Assembly: GCF_036588685.1 (NCBI RefSeq)
Contig: NC_086376.1
Location: 36,146,001 to 36,210,000, forward strand
Length of the DNA stretch: 64,000 bases
Reading direction: 5' to 3'
Source of the DNA: Mytilus trossulus
Taxonomy: Eukaryota
In this document: in pieces, positions 41,445 to 63,651 of the stretch
Numbering within the stretch: the first letter of the stretch is position 1
Layout: each line of letters opens with the position of its first letter
The notes under the pieces: generated by a model
The model's database searches: none
What the model was told of the DNA's origin: nothing
What the model saw: the letters and a program-made list of their open reading frames with translations, nothing else
Translations under genes and position numbers: made by a program

Positions 41445-41725
41445 TTCATGGACCAAAACTAATGTATCGCCTCTTTGACTAAAACTACTAATATATCACC
41501 TTGCGGACTTAACTATAATGTATTGCCTCGTGGACTAAAATTCATGTATCGCCGTGTGGACTTAAACTAACATGGCTTGTGAATTAAAAATAATGTACAG
41601 CATCTTGAAGTAAAACCAATATAATGCCTTGTTGAAAAACACTAATGTACCGTCTTGTGGACTAAAACTTATATACCGCATCGTTGACTAAAACTAATGT
41701 ATCGCCTTGTGGACTAAAACTAATA
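41445..41725. repeat. Degenerate ~30-bp tandem repeat
   Basis: Recurring gtggactaaaactaatgtatcgcc. Confidence 0.8.
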
Positions 41726-42091
41726 AAGTGATGCACCGCCATACGGTATACCTTAAATCAAAAGCCAGAATCAAAAGGTAAAATATTTTTTCCAGGACAT
41801 GGTTGCATTAGAAGAATCAGAGGAAGAAATACTACTATAAAATAAGGTTGCCCCTCCGTAAGAGGGGAGCCATAATTTAATCCAGTATTCAAGTTGAAAC
41901 TGATATGTCTTATCTTTTTAACTAGTTTCCCCCATAATATACATATCCAAAATAGCAATTTGCAGTTTGTTTACGCCAAATTCGTTTTTAGAATAAAAGG
42001 AAAAGAGTAAATAAATAAATGTTTATCCTAATAAAACAATAGTTAATAAACCCATATATATCTGACTTATATTACCAAAAAGATTAATTTA

Positions 42092-45000
42092 TTATCCAAT
42101 AATGTTTTTGTGTTCCTCCTTTATCTTTTTATCAATTCCTTGCATCTTTTTCATGACTGTGCCAAGTTGTTTATTGAACACGTTCACATCGTTTGAAGTT
42201 GCACTTTTCAATTCTTTTTTCAATTCTTTTGACTGAAACGTGTCGCCCATTTTCACTTGTGAATGCTCCATGTAATCTAAAAGTTTTAGGAGATCAACTT
42301 CCAGATGCATCAGATTTGAGTACATAGGAGAGTTAGCACCATATAAACCGTCCATCGAGACACTGTTCTCCTTATTTTTTTCTGTTACTATTTCGTCTAC
42401 CTGATTCTTTATTGTATCAGCCATTTTTTCTATTTTTAACGCTAATTTTGGTGAAGCACCTTTTTTCATCGTATTTGCGCGATATAGCATCTTTTCAATT
42501 TTCGATTTGATTAAATTGGCTTCTTTCTTGACTTGAAATCCCTTTTCCAGTATTGTTCCGGTCGCTTTTTTAATAATTGCGTTTGCCGTTGTGTTTGCAG
42601 TATTATTGGCTGTTATTTCGGCTGGTTTCTTTGCAATAAGTTTTTTAAGAACACTTAGTGTGTCGTTTTTCCCCCCGCTTTTTACTTTTGGTTTTGTCCC
42701 ATTTTTCTTCAATGCTTTTTGCTTAACCATTTTTTTCACATCCTTCATAATTACTTTATGTAAAGGTCTCTTCTTTTTAGAGTCAAACATTTTAGTAAGT
42801 TTATTTTTTTTCAGTGCTTTTCCTTTCACCATTTTTTTCACATCCTTCACAATTGCTTTATGTATAGGCGTCTTCTTTTTCAAGCCAAGTATTCCTGCAA
42901 TTTTATTTTGTTTCAGTGCTCCACCCTTCACAAATTTTTTCACATCCTTCAAAATTGCTATCTTTAAGGGTGTTTTCTTTTTCGAGCCAAGTATTCCTGC
43001 AAGTTTATTTTGTTTCAGTGCTTTTCCCTTCACAAATTTTTTCACATCATTCAAAATTGCTTTATTTAAAGGTGTTTTCTTTTTTGAGCCAAGTATTCCT
43101 GCAACTTTATTTTGTTTCAGGGCTGATCCCTTAACAAATTTTTTCACATCCTTCAAAATTGCTTTATTTAAAGTTGTCTTCTTTTTCAAACCAGGTTTTT
43201 CTGCAAGTTTATTTTGTTTCAGTGCGTCTCCTTTAACAATCTTTTTCACATCCTTCATAATTTCTTTCTGTAAAGGTGTCTTATTTTTGATAGATTTAAG
43301 TATTTCTGTAGTTGTTTTTTTCTTCAGTGCTTTCCCTTTAACAATCTTTTTTACATCCTTAATTATAGCTTTCATAAGTTGTTTTTTCTCACTAGGCTTT
43401 GTCTTTTTTCCAAACACCTTCTCCTTCTTGACTTCTGCTATTACCAGTTTCTTCAACAATTTTTCCGCTGCTTTCTGTTTAGGTTTTTTCTTGTCAGAAT
43501 TTGATTTTACCCCAAACATATTTTGAAGTGTCTGTTTTTTCGAGACAGGTTTTGCTTGTTTTTTCGAAACAGGTTTTCCTGCAAGTATATTTTGTTTTTG
43601 TGCGTTTCCTTTAACAATCTTTTTTACATCCTTCATGATTTTTTTATGTAAAGGTGTGCTCTTTTTTATCGACTTCAGTATTTCTGTAGTTGTTTTTTTC
43701 TTCAGTGCTTTCCCTTTAACAATCTTTGTCACGTCCTTAAGTATTGCTTTCATAAGTTGTTTTTTCTCGCTAGGCTTTGTATTTTGAAACACCTTCTCCT
43801 TCTTGACTTCTGCTATGACGAGTTTCTTCACCAATTTTTCAGCTGCTTTCTGTTTAGGTTTTTTCTTGTCAGAATTTGATTCCTCCCCAAACAAATTTTT
43901 AAGTGTCGTCTTTTTCGAGATAGGTTTTCCTGCTAGTATATTTTGTTTCTGTGCGTTTCCTGTAACAATCTTTTTTACATCCTTCATAATTTTTTTATGT
44001 AAAGGTGTGTTCTTTTTTATAGACTTTAGTATTTCTGTAGTTGTTTTTTTCTTTAGGTCTTTCCCTTTTACAATCTTTGTCACGTCCTTTAGTATTGCTT
44101 TCATAAGTTGTTTTTTCTCACTAGGCTTTGTCTTTTGAAACACCTTCTCCTTCTTGATTTCTGCTTTTACAAGTTTCTTCACCAATTTTTCCGCTGCTTT
44201 TTGTTTAGGTTTTTTCTTGTCTGAACTTGATTTCCCTCCAAACAAATTTTTAAGTGTCTTCTTTATCGAGATAGGTTTTCCTGCAAGTATATTTTGTTTC
44301 AGTGCGTTTCCTTTAACAATCTTTTTTACATCCTTCATAATTTTTTTATGTAAAGGTGTGTTCTTTTTTATAGACTTTAGTATTTCTGTAGTTGTTTTTT
44401 TCTTTAGGTCTTTCCCTTTTACAATCTTTGTCACGTCCTTTAGTATTGCTTTCATAAGTTGTTTTTTCTCACTTGGCTTTGTCTTTTGAAACACCTTCTC
44501 CTTCTTGATTTCTGCTTTTACAAGTTTCTTCACCAATTTTTCCGCTGCTTTCTGTTTAGGCTTTTTCTTGTCAGAACTTGATTTTCCCCCAAACAAATTT
44601 TGAATCGCCGTCTTTTTCGAGACAGGTTTTCCTGTAAGTACATTTTGTTTCAGTGCGTTTCCTTTTACAATTTTTTTTACATCCTTCATAATTTTTTTAT
44701 GTAAAGGTGTGTTCTTTTTTATCGACTTAAGTATTTCTGTAGTTGTTTTTTTCTTCAGTTCTTTCCCTTTAACAATCTTTGTCACGTCCTTAAGTATTGC
44801 TTTCATAAGTTGTTTTTTCTCACTAGGCGTTGTCTTTTGAAACACCTTCTCCTTCTTGACTTCTGCTATGACGAGTTTCTTCACCAATTTTTCCGCTGCC
44901 TTCTGTTTAGGTTTTTTCTTGTCAGAATTTGATTCCTTCCCAAACAAATTCTTAAGTGTCTTCTTTTTCGAGACAGGTTTTCCTGCAGATTTATTTTGTT

Positions 45001-48000
45001 TCAGTGCGTTTCCTTTAACAATCTTTTTTACATCCTTCATAATTTCTTTCTGTAAAGGTGTCTTATTTTTTATTGAATTAAGTATTTCTGTAGTTGTTTT
45101 TTTCTTCAGTTCTTTCCCTTTAACAATCTTTTTCACGTCCTTAATTATTGCTTTCATAAGTTGTTTTTTAGCACTAGCCTTGGTTTTTTTTCCAAACACC
45201 TTCTCCTTCTTGACTTCTGCTATAACGAGTTTCTTCAACAATTTTTCTGCTGCTTTCTGTTTAGGTTTTTTCTTGTCAGAATTTGATTTGCCCCCAAACA
45301 TATTTAGAAGTGTCTCCTTTTTCGAGGCAGCTTTTCCTGCAATTTTGATTTGTTTCAGTTCGTTCCCTTTAACAATCTTTTTTACATTCTTCATAATTTC
45401 CTTTTGTAAAGGTGTCTTATTTTGTATAGACTTAAGTATTTCTGTTGTCGTTTTTTTCTCCAGTGCTTTCCCTTTAACAATCTTTTTCACGTCCTTAATT
45501 ATTGCTTTCAAAAGTTGTTTTTTCGCACTAGGCTTTATTTTTTTTCCAAGCACATTCTCCTTCTTAACTTCTGCTATCACGAGTTTCTTCAACAATTTTT
45601 CCGCTGCTTTCTGTTTAGGTTTTTTCTTGTCAGAACTTGCTTTTCCTCCAAACATATTTTTAAGTATTGCCTTATTAACACTTTTGGTTGTCTTTGAATT
45701 TGATGTTGGTTCCAATATTTGTCCTATTATAGCATCTTTTTTCAATGCTTTACCTTTCACAATTTTCGTTACAATTTTAACCACTCCTTTCTTCGTAGGT
45801 TTCTTTTTTTCTTTGTTGATTGTCTTCGTAATATTACCTTGTTTTTCTTTAATTTCAGATATTACTTTTGTGCCATTTAGTGGTTGTGCGTCAATTTTCT
45901 TTTGCTCACTTTTCAATGTTTTAATCATTTTCATCATCTTATTTAATGCACTCTTTTCTTGAATGTTGGTCTTATTGTTTATTTGCTCAGTAGCTTGCTT
46001 TCTCTTAAGTTCTGCTTTGAGTGTCTTTTCGTTAGCTTTTTTTATTTTCTCCGCCGCAGCTTTGAGTTTCTTTTCGGTAGCCTTCTCTAATTTCTTTACT
46101 GCAACTTTTAGTTTCTTCATTTTATCCTTTTCCAACTTCTTAAGCTTTGTTTTGAGTTTCTTTGTTTTTTGCTTTTCCATCTTCTCAATCTTAGCTTTGA
46201 GTTTCATTGTTTTTGCCTGTCCCAATTCCTTAATCTTATTTTTGAGTAACTTTGTTTCAGCCTGTTTCATCTTTTTAAGTTCAGTTTTGAGTTTTTTTGT
46301 TTTAACCTGTTTCAACTTCTCAAGTTTGGTCTCGATTTTTTTGCTTTTAACTTCTTGTATTCGATCTAGCTTATTTTTTAGTTCCTTTGTTTTAACTTCT
46401 TGTTTCAATTTATTTAACTCTTCTTTGAGAATTTCTGATTTTGGATGTTTAATTTTCCCAATTTCTGTTGACAGATTCATTGCTTTATCGAGTTTTGATG
46501 TCGTTGGTGAAATGATGTCCGATGTCTTTCCTTTAAGTATTGCCTGGATGTCTGATTTTAGATCCTTTGCTTTCGAATTAAGTTGCACTGATTTAATTGG
46601 CTGAGTTGTCAAGGACTTTATCTTTTCTCCTGTAATAGCTTTACTTATAACGATAGGGGATTTTTTCATTTCCTTCACCATTTTCTTGATTTTCTTTGTT
46701 TCAACCTTTTTTAGTTTATCTAGATTAGCTTTGATTTTCTTTGTTTCAACTTTCTTGATCTCCTTAATCTTTTCTTTCACTTTCTTTGTTTCAACTTTCT
46801 TTAATTCCTTCAGTTTAGCCTTAAGTTCGATTTTTTTGACTGCTTGCACTTTCTTAGGTTTTGTACTGATTTTTTTAATTGCAACCTGTTTTACCTTCTC
46901 AAGTTTTTCCTTGACTTTTTCCATTTTATCCTGTTTTATGTTTTTAAGCTTAGCAGTTAGGTCCTTTGTTTCAACCTTCTTTTCTTTCTTGAGCTCAGTT
47001 TTGAGATTCTCTTTAGCTTGTTTTATTTTCTTAACGAGTTTGACTTTCTGAACTGCCGTAACAGTTGGGGTGGTAATAACAATTGGTTTACTTTCCATTT
47101 TCTTCAATTTCTTCTCGATTTTCTTTGTTCCAACTTCTTTTATCTTCTCTAGCTTAGCTTTGATTTTCTTTGTTTCAGCTTTCTTGATCTTTACAATCTT
47201 ATCCTTGACTTTCTTTGTTTCTGCTTTTTTCAATTTCTTAACTTTAGCCTTCAGTTCTTTTCTTTTAACTGCCTGTACTTTCTTGGGTTCTGATTTTATT
47301 TTTATTTTCGCAACCTGTACTACTTTCTTAAGTTTTTCCTTGACGTCATTCATTTTTTCCTGTTTTATGTGTTTAATCTTAGCAGTTAGTTTCTTTGTTT
47401 CAACCTGTTTTGTTTTCTCAAGCTTGGTGTCGAGTTTCTTTGCAGCCTTCTTTATTTCCTTAAGCTCTACCTTGATTTCACTTTTTTTGGCCTGTTTTAT
47501 TTCATTAAGCTTAGCAACAATTTTCTTTTTTTCCACCTGTTTTATTTCTTTAAGCTTAGTATTGAGTTTGTTTATTTTAGTCTGTTGTTTGTCTTTTGGT
47601 TCCGTCTTGATATTACTTGTCTCCTTCTGTTTTATGTTATTAATCTTTGCATTGAGGGACTTTGTTTTGACTTGTTCAATTTGCTTCAGTTTGTTATCGA
47701 GTTTCTTTGTTTCTTCCTGTTTCATTTCCTGTAGCTTAGCTTTGATAATCTTTGCTTGTGTCTCCTCTATCTTCTTAGGTATAGCTTCGATTTTCTCTAT
47801 TTTAGCCTGTTTAATTTTCTCTACCTTTGCAACGATTTCATTTTTCTTCGCCTGCTTGATTTGTTTAAGTTCTGCATTTATTTTATTTTTCCCAACCTCT
47901 TTCATTTTCTCCAACTTAGTGTTGAGTTTATTTATTTTAGCCTGTTGCTTTTTCTTAGGTTTAGTTTTGATAACTGATATTTTAGCCTCTTTTACCTTCT

Positions 48001-49358
48001 CAAGTTTTGCCTTAAGATTCTCTGTTTTAGCCTGTTTTATGCTTTCAAGTTTGGTATCGAGTTTCTTTATTTCAGCGTTTTTCACTTTCTTTAGCTCTGT
48101 TTTAATATTCTTTGCTTCAATCTTTTGTACCTTCTGACTATCAGCTTTGAGTTCCTTTGTTTTAAGTTGTTTTATTTTTTCGAGCTTAACATTTAGTTTC
48201 TTTGTTTCATCATGTTTTATTGTCTTAAGCTTGTCGGCTAGTTTCACTTTTTCAACTTTTTTCATTTTATCAAGCAGATTGTTAAGTTTCTTAGTTTCAA
48301 CCTTTTGTATCTTCTTCGGCTCATCTTTTATTTTCTTAGATTGAGTTTCCTTTATTTTTCCAATCTTCAAATCGAGTTTACTGGTTTCAGCTACTTTCAC
48401 TTTCTCAAGCTTTTTAAGAAGTTTTTTGGTTTCTATCTTTTTAACTTTTTTTAACTTAGCAATAACATTCTTTATTGCTGGTTGTTTTAATTTTATCTTG
48501 ATTGGTTTAACAATGAGTTTCTTAGCTGCAGTTTTAAGGTTTATCTTTACATTCACTTTCTTTTTCTTTGGATCATTCTTAATTCCTTTTTTTGTATCAT
48601 TCTTTTTCTTTGTTCCATTACTAAGTACGTTTGTTATAGTCTTAGTTTTAATCTTCTCTTTCCCAGACTTATATTTAGTGTCTTCCTTTATCTTCTCTGT
48701 CTTTGTTACTTTACCATTCTTTTTTGACTTAGCTTTAGTCACATTCTTTTTGCTTGACTTCTTTTTACTTCCTTTCTTGGTCTTCTTTGAATTAGCTTTA
48801 GTCACTTTCTTTGTGCCTGACTTAGATGTTGCTTTGGTGGGTTTGTTTATAATTTTTTTCGATTTCTTCACTTCTTTCTTTTTTATCTTGGTTGAAGTTG
48901 CTTTTGACTTTGGATTCTTTGATTTTACTACATTAGTTACCGTTGCCTTTTGAGAAACAGTGGTTGATTTGGGTTTCGGGGTTATTTTCTTTTGTAGTTT
49001 TTTAATCTCCGTTTGTAGGGATGTCAGTGTTTTATTTTTCTTGCTTGTCTGACCATTCTTAGTTATTACTACCTTACTCTTCTTCCCAGTAGAACGTGGT
49101 ATTGTTGGGATTCCTTTCGTGATTGCCCCCTTTTTAAACTCTATAGGTTCGATCGCTTTTATCTCAGATTTTCCATCCGCCTTAGAGTTGAGCAGCTGTA
49201 AAACTTGCGATTTGATTTTTTCAGATGGACCAGTCGTTGGCTGCTTTGGACCTGCCGAAGATGTACCAGTCGTTGGCTTCTTTGGACCTGCCGAAGATAT
49301 ACCATTGGCTGTGCGTGTATGTCGTAGAAGATTTTGCTGTAGTCCGTATCCTGGCCAT
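42092..49358 (-). CDS. 7267-nt terminal exon of the Lys-rich protein
   Basis: Unbroken frame. The ORF-track start at 48871 is a GTG; the frame stays open for 162 more codons up to the splice acceptor. Confidence 0.92.
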
Positions 49359-52300
49359 CTGAAAGAGAGAACATATAATTGCTAAACTGGTATGGTGAAA
49401 TCCCTAGATAAAAAACAGATGTTTCTAGGTTACCATGTCCCAAAAGATGCTATTCTATGCAAAATGAAGGAATACACAGAAGGATTGCTATTAGTGGGTA
49501 GAATTTTTGTATGGACTGAACTTGTGATTCAGATGAATTTAAACTTGATTCTAAAATAGCAACCATATTTTTACAAAGCCATGTTCTAATTAGCACAACA
49601 TATGTTTGACACATGCGCACACGGTTGCTGTTTTTATTGTCGTCATTGTTATTCTAATAAAATATATACATTTTAGCAACTAACATATAATATATTTTTT
49701 ATCATTTAATTGTTTGTCAAACAACATATATATTTAGCCTGCTTTTGGTTTTTAGATATGAAAATGTTATGTACAGACTCCACTGACAGCCGAACATTTT
49801 TTATGTATTTTCGTACGCTTCATCCTTTTAAAATACTGTTTCTAATATGACGTCCTTATAACGCTTTGTAAACAAAGCCGTGTTCTAATGAGCACAAAAT
49901 AAGTTTGACACATGCGCACGAACTTACTGTTTATATTAACTTTATTTCCATCGTTAAGCAGCCAGCATAAACTTTTATTATATATTTTTATGAAACAATA
50001 TATACAGTCATGAGACAAAAGTGAGTTCCCTATCATTTCAACTAAAATCGATATTTTTCAAAAAATTATTACGAAGTATTAAATGTATAAGCGATTTTTA
50101 TAAAATAGATACCAAAAGATGTAAAAATGTCTGAAGTTTTATTGTTTATTTAGTCATAATTTTCTTGAGTTTCATTTTCACCATCTGATGAGTTAAACAC
50201 AAATGCAAATTTTTACAATTTTAATTTGGTTAGAATAATAGCAAACTTTTCAAGAAATATTTTTTATTTTGTTCATCTCATCAGAAAATTAAAATAAGCG
50301 TGAATACTATAATAACCGAATAAACAATAAAACTTCAGACATTTCTACATCTTTCGGTATCTATTTGATGAAAATCCCTCATACAGTTACTTCGTAATAA
50401 TTTTTGGAAAAATATCGATTTTAGTTGAAATGATTGGACTTTTTTTGACTGGGACCTCACTTTTGTCTAATGACTGTATTTAGGGACGACACCAAAAGAT
50501 TGATGTAGGATAAACAACTTAAATCAAATAGTTTGGGGGTGGGGGTCAACATTGCTGCAAGTTTTGTTTATCCAAAATCGATTTTACATATATCCATTAT
50601 GGTCAATCAATTTTTCCCAAATTAAGTTAAGAAGGGGGGTGTTGGGGTCCGTGAAAAAACTATGTGAATTAAGTTTTTTTTTATCCTTCATTGTACTTTT
50701 GATGTCGTCCCTTACCCTGCTTGTAGTTTTTAAACTTATCAAATATGAACTACAATGCACAGACTCCTTGAGGTGGAAACGGGAACAGCCGAACGTTTTT
50801 ACGGTAATTTCATACGCTTCGACCTATAAGAATACTGTATTTGTCTAATTAGAATCAAAATAATTCCTTCATGTCATGCTCTATGCTCATTTTAACATGG
50901 GTAGGCATTATATTTGACCACATTTTACACCTCGCCAAACGCTCAGTGTAAAATATCGACAAATATAATGCATACCCATGTTAAAATGAGCATAGAGCAT
51001 GACATGAAGGAATTATTTCTTAAACATGCCCTAATAGAATCAAAATAATTCCCTCGTGTCATGCTCTAAATGAACACAGAGCATGACATGAAGGAATTGT
51101 TTTTTCATCAATTTGCCGTTTCAGAATCTAAAGGACTATGGGCACATCATTGTGTGTATCCCAATATGAACAGAAACTTTACATCTGATTGGTCTTACAT
51201 TTTTGTAATTTTTAGATCTGATACGTAGTTTTTATGCCCCACCTACGATAGTAGAGGGGCATTATGTTTTTTGGTCTGTGCGTCCATTCGTTCGTCCGTC
51301 CGTTCCGTTCGTCCATCTGTCCCGCTTCAGTTTAAAGTTTTTGGTCCAGGTAGTTTTTGTTGAAATTGCAGTCCAATCAACTTGAAACTTAGTACACATG
51401 TGCCCTATGATATGATCTTTCTAATTTTTATGCCAAATTACAGTTTTTATCCCAATTTCACGGTACACTGAACATTGAAAATGATAGTGCATATTTCAGG
51501 TTTAACATTTAAGTTTTGGTCAAGGTAGTTTTTGATGAAGTTGAAGTCCATTCAACTTGAAACTTAGTATACATGTTCCCTATGATGTGATCTCTCTAAT
51601 CTAATCTATATTTTACTCCAATTTCGCGGTCCACTAAACATAGAAAAATATAGAGCGAGTGGGGCATCCATGTACTATGGACACATTCTTGTTCGTTATG
51701 TTATTTCTGATACGTTTAAAAATATTTCTCCCCATCCGTCCCCACCTGTCAGAAACTGAATTGGCTCAATTATTTACTTCTAATGCATCGAATGCGAATC
51801 GAATTCCCAAATCGCATTCACACATTCTAATTTTTTAATTCCAAAATGATTCGAATTGGCTAATTCGAATTATCTAATTCGCATTAGAACTACGATTGTG
51901 AATACGAATTAAAAATAAACGTCGTTTGGACAATAAAGCGAATTTGACGCGCATTGTATTAATTCAAATTAGAATTGACGTTAGGACGTAAAACGTTTCG
52001 AATGCGAATTAAACTAATTCGAATTAGTTAATGCGAATCGAATTTGAATTATGTGATAACTCTAGACAAACAAATTGTGCGAATGGATTTTGTCAAGTTA
52101 CAATACATAGCAAACTACATAGCATGGGGCCTCCATGACGAATAACGGTAAAAATTCTTGCAAAATGAAGTTAACGGTTGTGCATGAAGATAAAATGTAC
52201 ACTTTTTTAGACGATAAAAAAATAGACTGATTTTGACCCATCACGACGCGATTTTTTTTTCCAAATATATTTTGCTAACGAAAGGTATTTGCGACCGACC

Positions 52301-55300
52301 TCTGACGAATCACCGTGACGATAAGAATATTTTGATGAATCCCGGTAAAATTTTAACCAATTTGACGCTAACGGTAGCAGAAATTGACAGTTTGACTCCT
52401 GACGGCAAAGAGCATTACTATACTCTGCTGTATGCTGATGATACAGTCTTCTTTTGAAAGATATATTATGTTTAATTGAAGGTTTTTTGAGAATAAATCC
52501 AGTCAAGGGACAGTGAAATTTCCCGAGCCGCAAGGCGAGGAAAATTCGGTCCAGAGACTGGTATTTTTCCCAAATACCCCTCCCTGATATAACATAACAT
52601 AACATAATATATCTGTTAGATCAAACCGAATAGATTTGGATTGAAACTTGCTCTCTGTACAGGTACTTGTAAGCTGTAATTCATAAACATTTAATGTATA
52701 ATTTTGATACTAAGTGGATATTATCATAGAACCGCGGGAATAACACATGTACTAATACGCGTAAGCCGGCTTTTGTTAGTTTATATCCGAAATTTTTTGG
52801 CGGGAAGATGCTCGCGAGGGTAAAAAAGAAATATCCAAAATGGCAAATACCATGGTATTTTAGACATATTCACCGGCAGTGGTGAAAAACAGGCAAAATT
52901 AGCACCCAAGATATGTTCAATTACAGCCTTCGCGCTTAATCTTTGATTCCACAAGCCAGAAGACCAAATTTTAGTTGGATGCAAGAAGTTGGCTTGTAGA
53001 GAAGATTTTTTTATGTGTTTTGTTATTTTATTTTGCCATGTGATTATGGACTTTCCGATTAGATTTTCCTCTAATTTCAGTACTTTTGTGATTTTACTTT
53101 TTAGAAGCACGAGAGCAATTTTACTAGCTAATGTCGTAGGACTTGCGGTTAAGCGTGAAGAGTGCAATCAATTGAAATATGTTAAAAATATCCCTCCATC
53201 TCCTTTCAGAGATAAATGGGTAGAACTTTTTTACTAAAATATCAATTTTGGGATTTATTTATTGGGTGAATCAATGCAAATTGTGTCATTTAATTCATTT
53301 ATTGTATGTAAACATGCAACGTAAAACACTTTATTTAGTTGCAAGGAAAGACACAAAGCATGTTGTGGATCAGGATTGGGTCACTTATTTTTTGTATTCT
53401 GGTTTAAGGGCATTTTTCTCTATGTTTAAAAAAACGATCATTTTTCAAAATTCTCATTTTCTCTTTAATATTTTAACAGAGATATTCGTTGAAACTCTAC
53501 TTGGGTAACCGACGCTTTAATAGCATAAATACTAAAAGATTTATTTAAGGTTGTACACCTCTGAGGAGCCAAAAATTTCTAGAATTTGAATGAATGAATG
53601 AACTTTATTCTCACAAAACTACATGTCATAGTTACAGAGAAAATATATATTTACAATTACATATATGTATATATAAGCATGCACATGTGTGAATAAATAA
53701 CGTAACTTAACTTGGAGGACTGACTTTCACCTGTATTATTTTTATAAACTTACATAATTTTTCTAAAACAATAGTATTGTCTGAATTAAATAAACTATTA
53801 AATTTGTATGTACTTGGATTTTTACAGCAATATTCAGGTAAAAAGTTCTTTCTCTCTAAATCTGAAGATTTACAAGTCATTATATAATGATTTAGAACTT
53901 GACATACAGGTACATGTACTGTACACTCGTGTATTAACTTATGTATTAATTAAGAAATAATTCATGGGGGCTGGAATATATCGTGATTTTACCACGGGTT
54001 GGCCCTTTATGACAAATATTTTACCCTGAGCGATAGCGAGGGGTAAAATATCGGCATAAAGGGTCAACCCGTGGTAAAATCTAGATATATTCAAGCCCCC
54101 ATGAATTATTTCGATTCTAATAGGACAAAAACGGCATTTTTGGGGGGTCGAAGAGCTCTATGTGGAGGCAAATATTTGCCGTTCCCATAAATTAACGCAC
54201 TTTTAGATTGGCGTTAACAACGGAGCAAACAGAATAAGTGACATGCTCAAACTATTTACAATAACGTATTTAGATGAATTTTACTGATAATTTACTTATA
54301 TGTGTTTTATGCATAAAAAAATGGACTTATATCACATTTGAGCATCGTTTGTTAACGTTTCCTTGTTGTGATGATTTTCGGTATCAGAAGCGTGTATTTT
54401 CCCGTAAAATGCTTAAATTATGACGTCGGGTACTTCATTCATACAAAAACTTTCTCGTTTCTCGTTTTGTTTATATAGATTAGACCGTTGGTTTTCCCGT
54501 TTGAATGGTTTTACACTAGTAATTTTGGGGCCCTTTATAGCTTGTTGTTCGGTGTGAGCCAAGGCTCCGTGTTGAAGGCCGTACTTTAACCTATAATGGT
54601 TTACTTTTTAAATTGTTACTTGGATGGAGAGTTGTCTCATTGGCACTCACACCACATCTTCCTATATCTATATATGACGTTGGAGTACGATTGGAACAGC
54701 CAATGCAATATATTCATATTTTACCACGGGTGTGTACTCAAAGCGTTTGAAGCACGTCATGTTAGAATTTATACCATACTTGACCTCTAGATGTTTTTTG
54801 TTTTTGTTTGGTGGGCTGCTGTTTCATTACAATACTCCTTTAAATTTCTCTATTCGCGTTGTAATCACTTTTTTTAGAATTTCACATTGACATTAATTAT
54901 GATAGAATTAAACTTTTATTCGGGTCAATGATAATTGAATAAAATTGGGAGGCTCCCAGTTTTAAAATTCACAGTTTTTATAGCTGACTATGCGGTATGG
55001 GCTTTTCTCATTGTTGAAGACCGTACGGTGACCTATAGTAGTAATTTAAATGTCTGTGTCATGTTTGTCTCTTGTGGAGAGTTGTCTCATTGGCGATTAT
55101 ATCACATCTTCTTTTTTGTTGTCAGAAAACAAAACAAATCTTATAAAGGAGAATCTTCAATATGCTTTAAAAGGTGGTACGTGAACACTACAGGGAGATA
55201 ACTCTGTAAAGTCAGCTAAACGTTTTAATTACGTCGTGTTGTAAAGGAAATATTAAGCTTCTCAGTGATCAAAATTGGTGTTTGTTAAACTGCTTTATAA

Positions 55301-58300
55301 CCAGTGTAATTTTCCTGACAAAACGGTTGGTTCAAAATTTATGTAATTTTTATATTTTTGGTTAAAGTTAACCCTTTCCTTAAGGTGGTACCTAACACTA
55401 CAGGGAGATAACTCTGTAAAATCAGCTAAACGTTTTAATGACGTTGTGTTGTTAAGGGAATATTAAGCTTCTCACTGATCAAAATTGGTGTTTGTCAAAC
55501 TGCTATATAACCAGTGTAATTTTTCTGACAAAACGGTTGGTTCAAATTTTTTTAAATATTTATATTTTTGTTAAAGGGTCAAAGTAAATGCATTGTCAAA
55601 ATATTATGAAAATTAAACGAGCCAAATTAATTTTAGTGAAAGTGTTGGGTACCACCTTAATAAATACTTTGTCAAATTTTAATGAAAATTAAACGAGCCA
55701 AATTAATTTTAGTGAAAGTGTTGGGTACCACCTTAATGCGGGGTTCACACATTGCCGATTATTGCTCCCGTTTGAGTTCAGACAGCAATACGACACGAAA
55801 AGTGAAAAAGTCGGATTAGTATCCTCAATTATCTGGAATGTCCTATCATTGTCTGAACACAGTCGTTTTAGTTCGTAACAGATTCTTACGGGTCGGGAAG
55901 GGTCCGAATAGTTCGGCAAAGCACCCCGACAGTTAGGTGCGTCCCGTAACATTCGGGACAACTCAGCCGATTTTGTCTAGTCGGATTCCAATCGTGGCTA
56001 TGTCGTGACAGATTCTGCTGTATCGGATCGAATTCCGAACAATGTCTTGTGTATTCTGGACGGTGTCTTGTGGAACGTGAATGATCTGGAGTAATTTTTC
56101 ATAGTTGTTTTTCTGCCGATTGAGTCCAGATTGCATCCAGATCTTGTCGATTGCGAACCGTTTTTTGCCGAAACCATTCCGAAACAGTCCCGTTATTAAT
56201 ACGAAATTAATCAATGATACCCACGTCAGAGTCCCGATAATTACAGAATACAATACGACTGAGACCAGACAAAGCCGTTTGCAATGCGATAGAGCGGACC
56301 GTGATAGGATTACGTTCCGTCAGTAACTGATCATCCCGAATATGCCGACAGTTTTCTAACGGATATCTTCCGTCAGCGTCGGTTCACTGTCTGGTCACTG
56401 TCTGATCTCTGTCGGATTACGTTCTGTAGAGTCGGGACGAAGTCGTGACATACTCGGTCGAATTTTACCTGGCGAAAAATAGAAATCGGGTTAGAAGCGG
56501 CTTCAGAACGGGATTGTCGGTACTAATTCGCTTAGAAACGGTTGAATATCGTCGCTTCCTGGACACTATCTGATTGTTGTCGTGATCAAATTATTTTTTT
56601 TTTAAAATTTTTATTTAAGTTTGAATTTCCATCCACGATTCACAGGATCTTGATCAGACTTTTGATAAATTTTAATCGGGAATGGTCCTGTCGAGGACGG
56701 TAGTAAAAATCGTGAATGTGTGACCCCAGCTTTAGCTAAATTAAGGATGCCTTTGTCCAGACAGAGAAACTATACCATAATTATTTCAATTTTTGATTTG
56801 GCAAAAACGATTGAATTAATAGCGAGATGACTGGACATATTACCTATGCATAATTTCATAGGAAAATTATAACTATACATTTTTTTCACCACAAAACAAC
56901 ACGGGGTGATACAGGAAAGTCATGGTATATCCCGACTCATTCCTTATTCTTGCTCAAAAGGAAGTTTTTTGTTAGTCTTGTATTATTTTAATTTTAGTTT
57001 CTTGTGTACAATTTGGAAATTAGTATGGCGTTCATTGTCACTGAACTAGTATATATTTGTTTAGGGGCCAGCTGAAGGACGCCTCCGGGTGCGGGAATTT
57101 CTCGCTACATTGAAGGCCTGTTGGTGACCTTCTGCTGTTGTTTTTTTTTTTTTTTTTGTTGGGTTTTTTTATTTGGTCGGGTTGTTGTCTCTTTGACACA
57201 TTCCTAATTTCCATTCTCAATTTTATTGTATATCACATTACACATGTTTTAATGATACCAAATTGTAGGTCAATAAAAATTCACAGATCGTTTGACCATC
57301 ATGAAAAAAATAACAACCATGACATTAGGATAATATGCTGTACCATCTTTACGACGGACGAACCGGACATTTCTATACCATAATACGTGCCGTGAACATT
57401 TTTGCATGAAATATTTGCCACTGGACGTAAGCAACCGACAAGCAATCAATTTATAGGACATAGTCTTGGTATTAAGCTGGCATTTATGGTAGTGCCTTCC
57501 TCTTATCAAAAATGATAATTGACATGCATTAATTATAAAAAAGGGATAGTCAATCATCTTGAGATTGCTACACGTGTAACTATACGATATTTTGTTGGAG
57601 ATCTCACAGAAACAGTAATGTGCTTTATTTCTTATGCCATATATATGGTTTTATTAGACTTTTATCCTGTTAGAATCAAATGCACTAATATTAATGGTGT
57701 AGATGTTAGATGCGGGAGAAACAGAAATTGGAGCATCGAAAATCCACATTACGTTTCTAACTACGGAAAATTACACGCATTACGTCCCAAAAAAAAGTGA
57801 CGTTTAGGGAGAATTCAAACGCTTAACGTCGCGCCAAGAGTTAACTCCCTTGAAACTGTATCAAATGCCCTTAAACTAGATTAACTACGAAACATTCAGA
57901 TAAAGTTTGAGTGCATTTGCGTGCAGTCTTCACACTGAACCACACCCCTGTAAAAATCATATCTACAGGCCAACATAATCTAACTTAAATTTCCTTTTGA
58001 TTAAGCTCTTGGCTTGTAGATTTAAAAGTTCATGGCAAAGACTAAATTTGGTCCAGTAGATTGATTGATTGATTGTTGGTTGCTTAACGTCCTGTGGTAA
58101 ATATTTCATGCATGTTCAGGACGAAAAGGTCCGATATATATATGTTAGAGGACCAGTTCAACTTTTAAGGAGTATTTGTAATTGTCGATTGAACAACTAT
58201 CCTCCGGAGTCCAAATTACGCAAAGCCACAGGCCCAGAAGCCCTGGCTCGTAAATTTGCTCTCGGGCCTGTAAAAATCGTCTGCAGGCCAACAGAATCTA

Positions 58301-61038
58301 ACAAAAAAAAATCCAAAAATTGAGATCAGAGCCTGTAGATTTTAAAGTTCATAATAAAGACTAAATTAACTTGTATGTATTAATAACTATGGGCTTTTAT
58401 CAATCAATGAATTGAAACCACGCCGTACAGTGAGATATTAAGACCCCGAAATAAAAAAATGTGAACAATTCAAACGAGAAAATCAAGGGCCTTATCTATG
58501 ACAGAACAAAAAACAAAAGAATACTATTATTACAGACAGCAACCAACGATAACGACTGAATTACTGGCTTCTTATGATCTTACTTGGGACAGGTATTTAA
58601 AGAAAATGGTGGGATTAAACATGTTTGTGATCGTTCAAGTTGACAACCTTCACCTAATTTAGAACAATGGTGTAACAGTAAAATGTTAGAACAAATTCTA
58701 AAATTTAGAAATTGCTTGACTCATTTGATTACAGTAAACGTCCTTTAACAGCAACCCCTAAAGTAAGGCTCCTTATACTTAAGGGGGATCCTGGGTATAA
58801 ATGATTTTTTTTTCCTAATATAGGATTTCGATATATTTTTTCATAAATGAACTTTATCATATACTTAAAAGAAAAATGAAATAAAAAAATGGATTCACCG
58901 TTCATTTAAGCTAAAATCTGCCTCTGGAAGAAGTATACATTTTTGTTAATGTCCTTTTTTTCTGTTGAACTAATAGGAGAAAAAGAGGAAATATCGAAAT
59001 AAAAAAATAACCTAATATAAGAAATTGCTTAAATTTTACAATTATTTAGTTTATGTACAGCTTATTTGAAAACAATAATAAAAAATATAGGTCACCGATG
59101 AGTTAAAAAAATATTTCAAATTTAAGGCCAAAAAATGGCATTTTTGCACCAAAGGGAGATAATTTGGAGCTTTTTCAATTTTTAAAGTCATCTGGGGCCA
59201 AACCAAATCATTTTTTGGGGTTGTTTTTTGTACCATATCATAAAGTAACAACTAATAGTGTAATAAATAAAATTTGTAATGAAAATATAAAGGTTTAATT
59301 TTTTGCTAAAATTTTTGTACCCACGAGCCACCTTAAGAGTTAGGATCCATAGTCTTATCATCTATTTTATGATAGTATGATAATAAACCCCTACCGGGAG
59401 GGATTGTGTATGATATTCATACGATGAAGACATAATGATCTTTCAATCAGTTTAGTTGAGGTCTGGAGCTGGTATGTCAGTTAACTGCTAGTAGTCTGTT
59501 GTTATATATGTATTATTGTCATTTTATTTATTTTCTTTTGTTACATCTTATGACATCGGACTCGAACTTCTCTTGAACTGAATTTTTATGTGCGTATTGT
59601 TATGCGTTTACTTTTCTAGATTGGCTAGAGGTGTAGGGGGAGGGTTGATATCTCATAAACATGTGAGGTCCAACCCCGACGACATTTTTGCGCCTGTCCC
59701 AAGTCAGTTGCCTCTGACCTTAGTTAGTCTTGTATGATTCCTAATTTTAGTTTCTTGTGTATAATTCGGAGTTCAGTATGACGTCAATTATCACTGTACT
59801 AGTAAACATATTTTTAAAGGGCCAGCTGAAGGATGCTTACGGGTGCGGGAATTGTCTTGCTACATTGTTATTGAAGACCCATTGGTGGCCTACGGCTGTT
59901 GTCTGCTCTATGGTCGGGTTGTTGTCGCTTTGACACATTACCCATTTCCTTTCTCAATTTTATTTTATTGTTATGGTTAGGTAATAGAATGTTCTAGGTT
60001 AGGGTTATGTTTCAGGGTTATAACTATTGTTAGGTTTTGCTGTTGTTTATGTTAAGTTTTTGGGGTTAAGGACAGTATAGTGTAGCTCTATGGGTTGGAA
60101 CTCCTAAACATGACGTTCTATGTTTTTAAATGCCAATTTCTTTGAATATAGAAAGAGTCTGAAAATAATTTAAAAACATGGTGTTTCAAGATGTCACTTT
60201 TATAAAGCCTGTTGTAAAACTTTCCTCTATTTTGTTTGCAAGTCAATCTGCAAACAGTAGAAAACAGTGCTGACCGCTAATGTGAAGGCTCTAACATGCT
60301 AAGGCTATTATTCATTTTTCCGAGCTAAAATAAGTGTTAATATATTATATTATTTTTAATCATACTCTTTTTATAAACTTATATAGGCCTACCAGTTTTT
60401 GTTCAAATATCTTTTGTTCAAATGTACTGAAAGGTGCAATATTTCCCTTTTTATATAAAGATCAATCTGACATCGTTTTTTTATAAAAGGCTTAAAAAAA
60501 TAAAAAGGGTTGAACTTTGGTTTCATTGGCATTGTCTACCCGACCCATTGTTTTTTCCGGTCACAACAGTAAATGGTCATATAATTACTAAAAAAAAATT
60601 ATCGCCAGTATGGCTTCTGTTTTTTTCGACATCAGTTTACTCAGGACAAGGTAAAGGAACCAGAGGCTTCTGGTTTTTGTTCCCGAATTCACTTTGTGCA
60701 ATAATGAATATAACGTTCACTGGTTATAACGTTTACCAAATAAAGTAATTTGTGTAACCAAAAGTTACCGGACTAAAAAATAGAATGCCGGCGGAATCCT
60801 TTAAGTTTGTTAATTCAAAATCATGTATGGAGAATACTTTTGTGTACTCATAGTCTAACGCAGCAGAAGGTTTTTTTTCAAATGTAACACACTATTTCAT
60901 TATCTCAAATATCTACATATACAATATTATCTACATTTTATCTTACTCATTATATAAGTCTTCTCTTGAATTGCGCCTTGCAAAGATGTTAGGCAGTCCA
61001 TAAACCAGGAAAATAACAAAGAAAATCAGTTTTGCCAT
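42092..61038 (-). CDS. Giant secreted lysine-rich repetitive protein, 2452 aa (coding exons 60947-61038 and 42092-49358)
   Basis: Exon A MAKLIFFVIFLVYGLPNIFA-RRNSREDLYN ends GA|GTAAG (phase 2). Exon B has acceptor tctctctttcag at 49359-49360 and is open only in phase 2 (WPGYGLQQNLLRHTRTANG...), running without a stop into the 2259-aa ORF and TAA at 42092-42094. AATAAA overlaps the stop. Confidence 0.82.
50005..50476. mobile_element. Tc1-like foldback MITE with ~150-bp inverted arms
   Basis: TA|CAGTCATGAGACAAAAGTGAG ... CTCACTTTTGTCTAATGACTG|TA. Confidence 0.88.
50483..50711. mobile_element. PIF/Harbinger (Tourist-like) MITE
   Basis: TTA|GGGACGACACCAAAAG ... CTTTTGATGTCGTCCC|TTA. Confidence 0.88.
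50860..51017. repeat. Long near-perfect hairpin element (related hairpins at 52458-52613 and 53956-54110)
   Basis: aataattccttcatgtcatgctctatgctcattttaacatgggta... with its reverse complement; short GC-rich loop. Confidence 0.85.
52370..52455 (+). pseudogene. Small non-LTR reverse-transcriptase fragment
   Basis: YYTLLYADDTVFF (YADD motif), cut off by a hairpin element. Confidence 0.55.
53588..53892 (-). mobile_element. 5'-truncated CR1/L2-group LINE 3' end
   Basis: HYIMTC...R..FLPEY...NPSTYKF..LFN......LEKLCKFI ORF2-like C-terminus, AATAAA plus (CATT)n tail; near-TSD tagaatttga / tagaacttga. Confidence 0.75.
55173..55732. mobile_element. Kolobok-like MITE containing a second intact copy of itself (55384-55656)
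   Basis: Inner copy TTAA|GGTGGTACCTAACACT...AGTGTTGGGTACCACC|TTAA; the outer copy has the same left part before it and the same right end after it. Confidence 0.85.
55737..56731 (+). mobile_element. ~995-bp PIF/Harbinger-like non-autonomous element, copy 1
   Basis: Termini TGCGGGGTTCACACATT / AATGTGTGACCCCAGCT; TAA/TTA flanks; colinear with 62459-63452. Confidence 0.9.
56970..57228 (+). repeat. Interspersed repeat; longer copy at ~59390-59965
   Basis: Shared gttagtcttgta...ggccagctgaagga.gc.t.cgggtgcgggaatt...tttgacacatt block. Confidence 0.75.
58783..59332. mobile_element. Kolobok-like MITE
   Basis: TTAA|GGGGGATCCTGGGTATAA ... TTGTACCCACGAGCCACC|TTAA. Confidence 0.8.
60947..61038 (-). CDS. 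Signal-peptide exon of the Lys-rich protein
   Basis: agtATGG Kozak-like context, basic n-region, hydrophobic core LIFFVIFLVYGL, GTAAGA donor, phase match. Confidence 0.78.
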
Positions 61039-61076: not shown

Positions 61077-61660
61077 CAATATGCTTCAAGTGCTCAACCG
61101 TTGCAGGAATGAAAATATTCCGGAACACAGGTCCGGAAATAACGCATTAATGCACGAGGGTCTTGATGGAGTTTACAGAAAACTTTAGAGAAAATAAGAG
61201 ACAAATAATAATGTAAAGATTACCCGGGAACGATTGGGACACTACTAGAGCGCTCAAATACGAAAAAAAACCAAGTTACATACCTAAAAAAGCGTGTACA
61301 CTATTATATAGGACGAAATCGCTGCAGTCGTAGATCTCGTAGCCTTCCTTCTTTTGTTTAGCTTATATTTGTTTCCTTCAGGGACAGAAATCAAACCAAT
61401 AAAAACATTTCAATATATCCTGGTTCCTTTTGTCGATTAAATCATTTTTTTTTTGTGTTCGTGAAATATTCTTTATTAGCATCATCACTTATTTTCTATT
61501 TAATGTTTATAATTCAGTCTGATTGCCGGTTTGTTTTCCTTTGGTGTAACAATAAAAAAAAACAATATGTCATAAAATCGAATTAATATAATTTACAAAA
61601 TACGTATAAACATACGCTTCGTTCTAGTCTATTTCAAAGACAATCTTTCAATTTTTGTTA

Positions 61661-63651
61661 AGCCGGGGTCACACATTCACGATTTTTACTACCGTCCTTG
61701 ACAGGACCATTACCGATTAACAAAAATTAAAAGTCTGATCAAGATCCTGTGAATCGTGGATGGAAATTCAAACTTAAAATAAAATTTGTAAAAAAATTAA
61801 TTTGATCACGACAACAATCAGATAGTGTTCAGGAAGCGTCGATATTCAACCGTTTCTAAGGGAATTAGTCCCGATAATCCCGTTCTGAATCAGCATCTAA
61901 TCCGATTTGTATTTTTCGCCAGGTAAAATTCGACCGAGTCTGTCATGACTGCGTCCCGACTCTACCGAATGTAATCCGACAAAGATCAGACAGTGACCAG
62001 ACAGTTAACCGACGCTGACGGAAGTTATCCGTTCGAAAACTGTCGGCATATTCGGGATAATCAGGTACTGTCGGAACGTAATCCTATCATGATCCGCTAT
62101 ATCGTATTGCAAACGGCTTTGTCTGGTCTCAGTCGTATTGTATTCTGTAATTGTCGGGACTCGCACGTGGGTATCATTGACGAATTTCGTCTTAATAACG
62201 GGACTGTTACGGAACGGTTTCGGCAAAAAACGGTTCGCAATCGACAAGATCTGAATGCAATCTGGACTCAATCGGCAGAAAAACAGCTATGAAAAATTTC
62301 TCCAGATCATTCCCGTTCCACAGGACATCGTCCAGAATACACAAGACATTGTTCGGAAATCGATCCGATGCAGCAGAATCTGTCACGACATAGCCACGAT
62401 AGTAATCCGACTAGACAATATCGGCTGAGTTGCCCCGAATGTTACGGGACGCACCTAATGCGGGGTTCACACATTGCCGATTATTGCTCCCGTTTGAGAT
62501 CAGACAGCAATACGATATGAAAAGTGAAAAAGTCGGATTGGTATCCTCAATTATCTGGAATGTCCTATCATTGTCTGAACGCATTCGTTTTAGTTCGTAA
62601 CAGATTCCTACGGATCGGGAAGGGTCCGAATAGTTCGGCAAAGCATCCCGACAGATAGGTGCGTCCCGTAACATTCGGGGCAACTCAGCCGATTTTGTCT
62701 AATCGGATTACAATCGTGGCTATGTCGTGACAGATTCTGCTGTATCGGATCGAATTCCGAACAATGTCTTGTGTATTCTGGACGGTGTCCTGTGAAACGG
62801 GAATGATCCGGAGTAATTTTTCATAGTTGTTTTTCTGCCGATTGAGTCCAGATTGCATCCAGATCTTGTCGATTGCGAACCGTTTTTTGCCGAAACCGTT
62901 CCGAAACAGTCCCGTTATTAATACGAAATTCGTCAACGATACCCACGTCAGAGTCCCGACAACTACAGAATACAATACGACTGAGACCAGACAAAGCCGT
63001 TTGCAATGCGATAGAGCGGACCGTGATAGGATTACGTTCCGACAGTACCTGATCATCCCGAATATGCCGACAGTTTTCGAACAAATAACTTCCGTCAGCG
63101 TCGGTTCACAGTCTGGCCACTGTCTGATCTCAGTCGGATTACATTCGGTAGAGTCGGGACGCAGTCGTGACAGACTCGGTCGAATTTTACCTGGCGAAAA
63201 ATACAAATCGGATTAGAAGCGGATTCAAAACGGGATTATCGGGACTTATTCGCTTAGAAACGGTTGAATATCGGTGCTTCCTGAACACTATCTGATTGTT
63301 GTCGTGATCAAATTATTTTTTTTACAAATTTTAATTTAAGTTTGAATTTCCATCCACGATTCACAGGATCTTGATCAGACTTTTAATAAAATTTAATCGG
63401 GAATGGTCCTATCAAGAACGGTAGTAAAAATCGTGAATGTGTGACCCCAGCTTAACTGTCGGGGTGCTTTGCCGAACTATTCGGAACCTTCCCGACCCGT
63501 AGGAATCTGTTACGAACTAAAACGACTGCGTTCAGACAATGATAGGACATTCCAGATAATTGAGGATACTAATCCGACTTTTTCACTATTCGTGTCGTAA
63601 TGAGGTCTGATCTCAAACGGGAGCAATAATCGGCAATGTGTGAACCCCGCA
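61661..63651 (-). mobile_element. Harbinger-like element, copy 2 (inverted), split by copy 3
   Basis: TTA TSD at 61658-61660 and 63652-63654. Segments 61661-62455 and 63456-63651 together make one reverse-complement copy. Confidence 0.92.
62459..63452 (+). mobile_element. Harbinger-like element, copy 3, nested in copy 2
   Basis: TAA TSD at 62456-62458 and 63453-63455; full-length, 994 bp. Confidence 0.93.

Follow-up and report, generated by a model that had tools for sequence, protein, structure and literature searches.

A real, apparently undescribed giant polycationic protein of Mytilus with a non-canonical 15-residue seam

A stretch of 64,000 nucleotides of the Mytilus trossulus genome (RefSeq assembly GCF_036588685.1, contig NC_086376.1, positions 36,146,001 to 36,210,000), here called the window and numbered from its first letter, was analysed starting from an initial annotation in which a strict 15-residue periodicity, and a right-handed coiled coil, had been proposed for one open reading frame. 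The frame belongs to a two-exon gene on the minus strand; its product is a real and apparently undescribed protein of Mytilus, giant and polycationic, whose seam departs from the canonical one: three positions out of 15 are aliphatic, and the expected fourth core position is mostly occupied by lysine or glutamate. The protein may be a secreted polycationic scaffold, whose 15-residue helices would bundle in parallel upon charge screening to form a segmented rod; a probability of about 0.4 is assigned to this reading.

Gene structure and transcript evidence

The 64 kb window has a GC content of 32%, few open reading frames and many repeats. The open frame holding the array of 15-residue units runs on the minus strand from 49381 down to 42092; residue numbers are counted from this frame, and 23 has to be added to obtain the numbering of the spliced protein. 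The spliced context, with its signal-peptide-like first exon, had been missed in the initial annotation. The gene is made up of the following parts:

60947..61038, minus strand: coding part of exon 1 (92 nt), encoding Met, a signal-peptide-like hydrophobic stretch of about 20 residues and a short polar tail; from translation and a GT donor.
49359..60946, minus strand: GT-AG intron of 11,588 nt (ends CT..AC); a contig of run X14 joins 49358 to 60947.
42092..49358, minus strand: coding part of exon 2 (7,267 nt, uninterrupted); from the open frame and frame arithmetic.

The splice contig, present in one of the four runs compared, has 39 letters on its shorter side, and the join is in frame, so that the two exons encode 2,452 residues. 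The ATG, at 61038, lies just beyond the stretch covered by the contig comparison and is preceded, ten codons upstream, by an in-frame stop. The stretch, or part of it, is present in 20 of the 24 sequencing runs listed, which come from 8 studies. A contig of run X2 spans 45606-48441 with 12 differences and a contig of the RNA-labelled run X15 spans 45612-47763 with 100 differences; neither has gaps in the repeats, which shows that the 15-residue array is not an assembly artefact. Long antisense open reading frames were dismissed as mirrors of the lysine-rich frame.

Directly past the stop codon, a degenerate 26-nt tandem array of about 10 copies extends over 41449-41724. Contigs end at different points in this region, with X5 reaching 41627 and X2 and X14 stopping near 41930, perhaps reflecting alternative 3' ends.

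Composition and probable secretion

The whole protein (about 276 kDa) is 31% lysine, with 750 Lys and 228 Asp/Glu, and contains no Cys, 8 Tyr, 1 Trp and 13 His out of 2,451 residues; the part encoded by exon 2 accounts for 273 kDa, with a pI of about 10.4. The exon 1 product has a short basic start, Met-Ala-Lys, followed by a hydrophobic run, where 9-residue hydropathy rises up to 3.7, and by a small residue near position 20. No transmembrane-like stretch was found in exon 2, the highest 19-residue hydropathy being 0.76. The signal-like exon 1, together with the lack of a membrane-spanning stretch, suggests that the protein carries a signal peptide and is likely secreted. Two other roles were considered and rejected: a nuclear one, as a sperm basic or histone-like protein, with which the signal-like start seems incompatible, and that of a DOPA adhesive, given only 8 Tyr.

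From the N- to the C-terminus, the layout is: putative signal, basic and probably disordered region, four blocks of 15-residue units, seven repeats of 117-125 residues, five repeats of 34 residues and a conserved C-terminal domain. The first region of exon 2 is:

48473..49357, minus strand: N-terminal basic region rich in Lys, Ser, Thr and Pro, likely disordered; from composition, with no periodic peak.

Near the start of exon 2, a 36-nt tandem duplication (2.3 copies, 49223-49304) codes for a 12-residue Ser/Thr/Pro/Gly unit.

The array of 15-residue units

The array occupies positions 45983-48472 of the minus strand and consists of about 50 units, 46 of which were identified by profile parse (residues 304-1133), while 4 lie in register below threshold. 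Four blocks are distinguished:

47441..48472, minus strand: block 1, made of 23 units, with Pro/Ser each 60 residues at position 7 and a 120-residue super-repeat; from profile parse.
47081..47440, minus strand: block 2, 8 units, one Pro unit; comes after block 1 with a one-residue slip.
46652..47011, minus strand: block 3, 8 units of which one has Pro; it duplicates block 2, at 59% identity when linkers are counted.
45983..46480, minus strand: block 4, about 11 units, none of them with Pro at position 7; from profile parse.

All eight 15-mers quoted in the initial annotation are present in the minus-strand frame where it had placed them, and its location of the array stands, except that the array begins one unit earlier, at 48472. 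The periodicity is less strict than proposed: the four blocks are accompanied by two one-residue slips (a 14-residue unit at residue 634 and a slip at 998) and by two linkers outside the repeat pattern, about 23 and 57 residues long. Position-wise counts were made on 47 units taken from contiguous runs. Large aliphatic residues occupy position 3 in 47/47 units, position 7 in 39/47 and position 10 in 42/47, in agreement with what had been noted. Position 13, previously described as often hydrophobic, holds one of LIVMF in only 20/47 units, with Ala in 14 more (Val/Ala/Ile in 34/47), and lies off the seam, at roughly 120 degrees to position 3 when plotted on a 15/4 wheel.

The rule of a Pro, once Ser, at position 7 of every fourth unit is valid between residues 355 and 595 (355, 415 with Ser, 475, 535 and 595) and does not hold afterwards, where position-7 prolines are found at 699 and 842 and none occurs in block 4. 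All prolines of the array are at the seam position or in linkers; within units, Gly accounts for 0.6% and Pro for 1.1% of the residues. The proposed 120-residue super-repeat was recovered in block 1, where identity at a lag of 8 units is 0.49, compared to 0.336 in permuted arrays (p=0.0002); similarity at a lag of 4 units is marginal (p=0.051). At 0.15 nm per residue, the four blocks would measure 51, 18, 18 and 25 nm.

Units are about 34% identical to one another. At the DNA level, identity at a lag of 45 nt is 0.59, and third-position identity is 0.50 compared to 0.27-0.29 off-register, which indicates that the units share ancestry. Among the 40 best-supported sequence differences, 11 fall in exon 2 (5 synonymous, 6 non-synonymous); the four non-synonymous ones located in 15-mers all miss positions 3, 7 and 10, an outcome expected by chance about 40% of the time and hence uninformative.

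This common descent, together with the composition of the region (34% Lys, net charge +173 over 814 residues, or +0.21 per residue) and a low ESM recognition score (644), would also fit a mostly disordered extracellular polycation, able to condense or coacervate polyanions, with the repeats mainly a by-product of 45-nt DNA duplications. The basic tail of linker histones, which condenses polyanions, offers an analogy. This explanation is held to be unlikely, as units which differ at about two thirds of their residues all keep an aliphatic residue at position 3, a constancy pointing to selection on the seam, and as prolines are restricted in the way described above.

What the 3.75 periodicity can and cannot show

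A Fourier peak near 3.75 residues had been suggested as support for a right-handed coiled coil, with a peak at 3.5 as evidence to the contrary. The 3.75 peak is indeed present in all four blocks, with powers of 33.7, 13.1, 13.1 and 12.5, the maxima of 300 shuffles per block being 11.1, 8.3, 12.0 and 11.5; the excess in blocks 3 and 4 is narrow. Power at 3.5 is 0.1-0.3. The test, however, is not diagnostic. In a tandem 15-mer, power is possible only at 15/k, and a 3.75 peak is nearly forced. Simulated ordinary short helices, repeated every 15 residues, have k=4 as the top harmonic in 87% of cases at 100 degrees and 80% at 103 degrees; since arrays of short helices produce the same top harmonic, the peak is not evidence of right-handed supercoiling. 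The same caution applies to other 15-residue tandem repeats.

The discriminating feature is the set of core positions. A pentadecad has four core residues, as described in the available text of PMC11651203, spaced 4-4-4-3, and this arrangement was not found in the array: the best legal register, and the only one with three good positions, is 3, 7, 10, 14, with hydrophobic fractions of 1.00, 0.85, 0.89 and 0.02. A canonical four-layer pentadecad, as in the VASP tetramer or the YadA stalk, would be the version of the initial annotation and would take its fourth core residue from position 13. The 15-residue phasing and the 3.75 peak agree with it, as do the frequent Val/Ala/Ile at position 13 and the charges around that position, which form 12 opposite and 2 like pairs. 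The resulting spacing is 4-3-3-5, however, which is not a 15/4 seam and gives strong 3.0 and 2.5 harmonics, and a canonical pentadecad is regarded as most improbable. The array thus fails one defining feature of the family, yet it may still work like a member.

Helix prediction and charge patterning

An AlphaFold2 monomer model was obtained for residues 439-558 (120 residues), from an alignment made only of six internal copies, the segment itself and five others. The model (pLDDT 91.8, pTM 0.61) is helical at 2-34 and 38-119: the predicted helix breaks at the first Pro, runs through the second Pro and the unit junctions, and forms no hairpin by secondary structure. The dominance of helix formers and the predicted break at a Pro unit make a long segmented helical rod plausible, and to this extent the initial proposal of a segmented right-handed rod can be kept; its canonical pentadecad form fails on the charged fourth core position.

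Oppositely charged pairs occur more often than expected at i,i+2 (76, compared to 57.8+/-5.1, p=0.0002), also when only pairs around positions 3, 7 and 10 are considered (43 vs 33.0, p=0.003), and at i,i+3 (80 vs 63.6, p=0.001), whereas single pairs, of which 60 were tested, reach p values of 0.009-0.05 at best; as the repeats are duplicates, all these p values overstate independence. Residues at i,i+2 cannot meet inside one helix. Such pairs resemble the inter-chain g-b bridges which, according to the part of PMC13580157 available, bracket a core position in trimeric adhesin stalks, and would also fit beta strands.

Forms containing beta structure deserve mention for further reasons. When Ala is counted, positions 3, 5, 7, 10, 13 and 15 give 2.5 as the top harmonic, and alpha-to-beta conversion is described, in the accessible portions of the respective papers, for MSP-1 (PMC12568988) and Dreissena thread proteins (PMC10691215). 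Almost no Gly, Asn or Asp is available for solenoid arcs, though, and beta ladders would bring together like charges far more often than opposite ones. The beta-layer rule, given in the available text of PMC4786415 as an N-cap D/N/T/S followed by D/E/Q at +3 and a hydrophobic residue at +4, is matched in none of the 15 registers: with the N-cap at position 15 the scores are 0.49 for the cap, 0.00 for g and 0.06 for a, and at position 14 the cap itself scores 0.04. Beta-containing forms are accordingly considered very improbable.

A possible secreted, segmented rod

The favoured reading, a secreted cationic scaffold forming a segmented rod, can be formulated as follows. The protein would enter the secretory pathway. 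Its net charge would keep the helices separate, or only loosely folded, until they are neutralised by salt or by an acidic partner, such as a sulfated mucin, a glycosaminoglycan or an acidic matrix protein. Parallel chains could then pack through three aliphatic layers (positions 3, 7 and 10) per 15 residues, while the fourth layer would be formed by the stems of Lys and Glu, with the head groups pointing outward, aided by Val/Ala at position 13; long polar core side chains can snorkel outward in dimers, as reported in the available part of PMC13580157. Opposite charges flanking the core positions would bridge the chains. A continuous helix would imply a right-handed average twist, since this is the direction in which any uninterrupted helix with a 15-residue seam has to supercoil, as stated in PMC8016460. 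The rod would be hinged at Pro units and Pro/Thr linkers and stiff in between, in segments about 8-9 nm long (60 residues, each contributing 0.15 nm). Its surface, covered with lysine, would cross-link polyanions to give the cationic scaffold of a mussel extracellular material, and the conserved C-terminal helical domain may keep the chains in register.

Several observations weigh against this formulation. Position 14 holds Lys or Glu in 37/47 units and a large hydrophobic residue in none. The harmonic profile of the array (k4 0.33, k5 0.26, k6 0.23) is far from that of an ideal pentadecad (0.58, 0.05, 0.05). Opposite charges are depleted at i,i+4 (38 vs 48.5), and at i,i+15 same-charge pairs outnumber opposite ones (153 vs 85), a shortage of salt bridges and an excess of like charges which make the stability of the free helix doubtful. 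The charge statistics are inflated by duplication, as stated above, and the predicted helix offers weak support, as models of this kind favour helix for such sequences. Furthermore, word-index, ESM Atlas, metagenome and PDB searches retrieved no homologue of the 15-residue region that would bear out conservation of the seam across species.

Lastly, the hydrophobic moment within units peaks near 105 degrees (0.458, compared to 0.359 at 96 degrees), as fits short separate helices. Each 15-mer might then be an amphipathic helix of about 11-12 residues, capped near Thr15 and broken at 13-15, lying on an anionic surface (polysaccharide, membrane or mineral) or packed locally like a bead on a string, with no supercoil and with 3.75 arising, as in the simulations, as the fourth harmonic of the repeat length. 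Position 15, where Thr is common, has the lowest helix propensity and carries an N-cap-type residue (D/N/T/S) in 49% of the units, and the remainder of the protein is made up of short amphipathic helices split by Gly/Pro. The junctions between units, on the other hand, lack a Gly/Asn/Pro turn, the capping residue is missing in half of the units, the AlphaFold2 helix continues across junctions, and the 15-mers have only a weak hydrophobic moment (above 0.6 in 4% of 11-mers, compared to 3% after shuffling). Exact phasing through 23 units is also easier to explain if register matters. Separate short helices are on balance judged rather unlikely.

Single alpha-helix domains are characterised by dense i,i+4 Glu-Lys/Arg pairing, near-neutral charge and the lack of a hydrophobic seam. 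This type of domain was rejected for the array, in view of the depletion at i,i+4, the positive net charge and the presence of a seam.

In its most specific version the favoured reading would be that of a long, secreted animal right-handed coiled coil, of about 70 nm for blocks 1-2 or 110 nm for all four, charged every fourth core layer, gated by polyanions or seawater, hinged by Pro each 60 residues, and providing some mussel extracellular material with its polycationic structural partner; so detailed a picture is somewhat doubtful. Long coiled coils of the 15/4 type are uncommon. A secreted one from a mussel, with one of its core layers charged, would, if real, extend the design rules of coiled coils and provide a synthesisable module of 60-120 residues for polyanion-triggered fibres.

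Downstream repeats and C-terminal domain

The part of exon 2 which follows the array contains three further elements:

43205..45622, minus strand: seven repeats of 117-125 residues, short Lys-rich amphipathic helices split by Gly/Pro; from repeat analysis, matched by CAG2206211.1.
42695..43204, minus strand: five repeats of 34 residues, a shortened form of the 117-125-residue helical module; 102-nt period.
42095..42580, minus strand: C-terminal domain, non-repetitive and conserved (83% identity with Mytilus californianus XP_052100589.1), predicted to be entirely helical.

In the two sets of repeats (42695-45622), 14-15% of 11-mers have a hydrophobic moment above 0.6, compared to 3-4% of shuffled ones. 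Their helices, which we take to resemble cationic antimicrobial helices, may be the polyanion- or membrane-binding part of the protein. The C-terminal domain was modelled as helical with low confidence (pLDDT 52); it has no Pfam match, no PDB sequence match and, starting from this low-confidence model, no Foldseek match at E<=0.001. Silk-type architectures feature a terminal assembly domain, and by analogy the C-terminal domain is a possible assembly domain.

Homologues and known systems

A search for representative homologues, in which the query was formed by the last 502 residues and thus left aside the 15-residue region, produced five matches. Two are clear relatives, Mytilus californianus XP_052100589.1 (LOC127734642, E 4e-105) and Mytilus edulis CAG2206211.1 (E 4e-32); the other three (E 5e-5 to 5e-4), much longer proteins with HEAT-like repeats, one of them so named, were set aside as repeat artefacts. 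Homologues of this C-terminal portion were found in Mytilus alone. The two relatives are likely orthologous pieces, with 73% identity both across the final 286 residues and within the 117-residue repeats, but are uncharacterised short predictions (284 and 151 residues), which contain neither signal peptide nor 15-residue region. Whatever its fold, this giant polycationic Mytilus protein now has a full gene model that takes in the putative signal exon, where searches returned only short uncharacterised pieces. Trypsin would cut a chain with 31% Lys into very small fragments, which may explain why proteomic studies have overlooked it.

One-base insertions occur within tandem repeats, at 42934 and 44691, in some contigs of runs X5 and X14. 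Along with the out-of-frame middle of the M. edulis record, they may represent repeat copies placed wrongly, errors of assembly or broken alleles.

No Pfam family scored above a curated cut-off, either for the frame as a whole or for six pieces of it, and word-index searches found no relatives. ESM Atlas returned no usable match for the 15-mers or the C-terminal domain, and none of 592 pattern matches in metagenome contigs was confirmed. For the 15-residue repeats, the best PDB sequence match had an E of 0.12 and the segment model no Foldseek match at E<=0.001. No paralogue is present within the window. The protein is not described in the literature on Mytilus proteins that was found, where supplementary tables could hold the gene under another identifier, and none of the pentadecad papers among the matches listed concerns molluscs.

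The 15/4 coiled coils treated in the available parts of PMC4721544, PMC8016460 and PMC11651203 are microbial, viral or intracellular. The same sources describe, for the VASP tetramerization domain and the YadA/SadA stalks, a helix-forming sequence whose aliphatic seam is phased every 15 residues, with a 3.75 periodicity, features shared with the mussel array. The latter differs in that only three positions carry large hydrophobics, the fourth being Lys/Glu; in its strongly positive net charge; in its length of about 50 units, with putative Pro hinges; in belonging to an animal protein which is likely secreted; and in having no sequence or fold match in the PDB.

Giant helical coiled-coil precursors are known from bivalve materials, as excerpts of PMC10691215, PMC13022425 and PMC12568988 indicate. 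Compared by description, the Dreissena tpf1 family also consists of giant, repetitive, predicted helical proteins encoded largely by one long exon, but is reported, in the text available, to comprise intronless genes for products of 354-467 kDa with 19-20% Asn (PMC10691215), as opposed to about 276 kDa, 31% Lys, two exons and 15-residue units. The byssal proteins mefp-12 and MSP-1 of Mytilus are extracellular, with predicted coiled coils and conditional assembly (PMC13022425 and PMC12568988, in part), features which are proposed here for the lysine-rich protein too; mefp-12 is His-rich and Zn-dependent, unlike the His-poor protein described here, and MSP-1 is a 67 kDa protein with no signal peptide. 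The lysine-rich matrix proteins (KRMPs) of bivalve shell also contain lysine and are secreted, as is likely here, but have a size of about 10 kDa, with Lys-Trp and Gly-Tyr domains (PMC3896809, in the portion available); neither domain is found in the 2,452 residues of the mussel protein, where Trp and Tyr are scarce.

Other repeats in the window

Just upstream of exon 1, an inverted repeat is found at 61657-63456, with arms of 801 nt, 94% complementary, and a 198-nt spacer. An extra copy of the 801-nt arm lies within the intron, at 55728-56742; the element looks like a foldback or MITE-type one.

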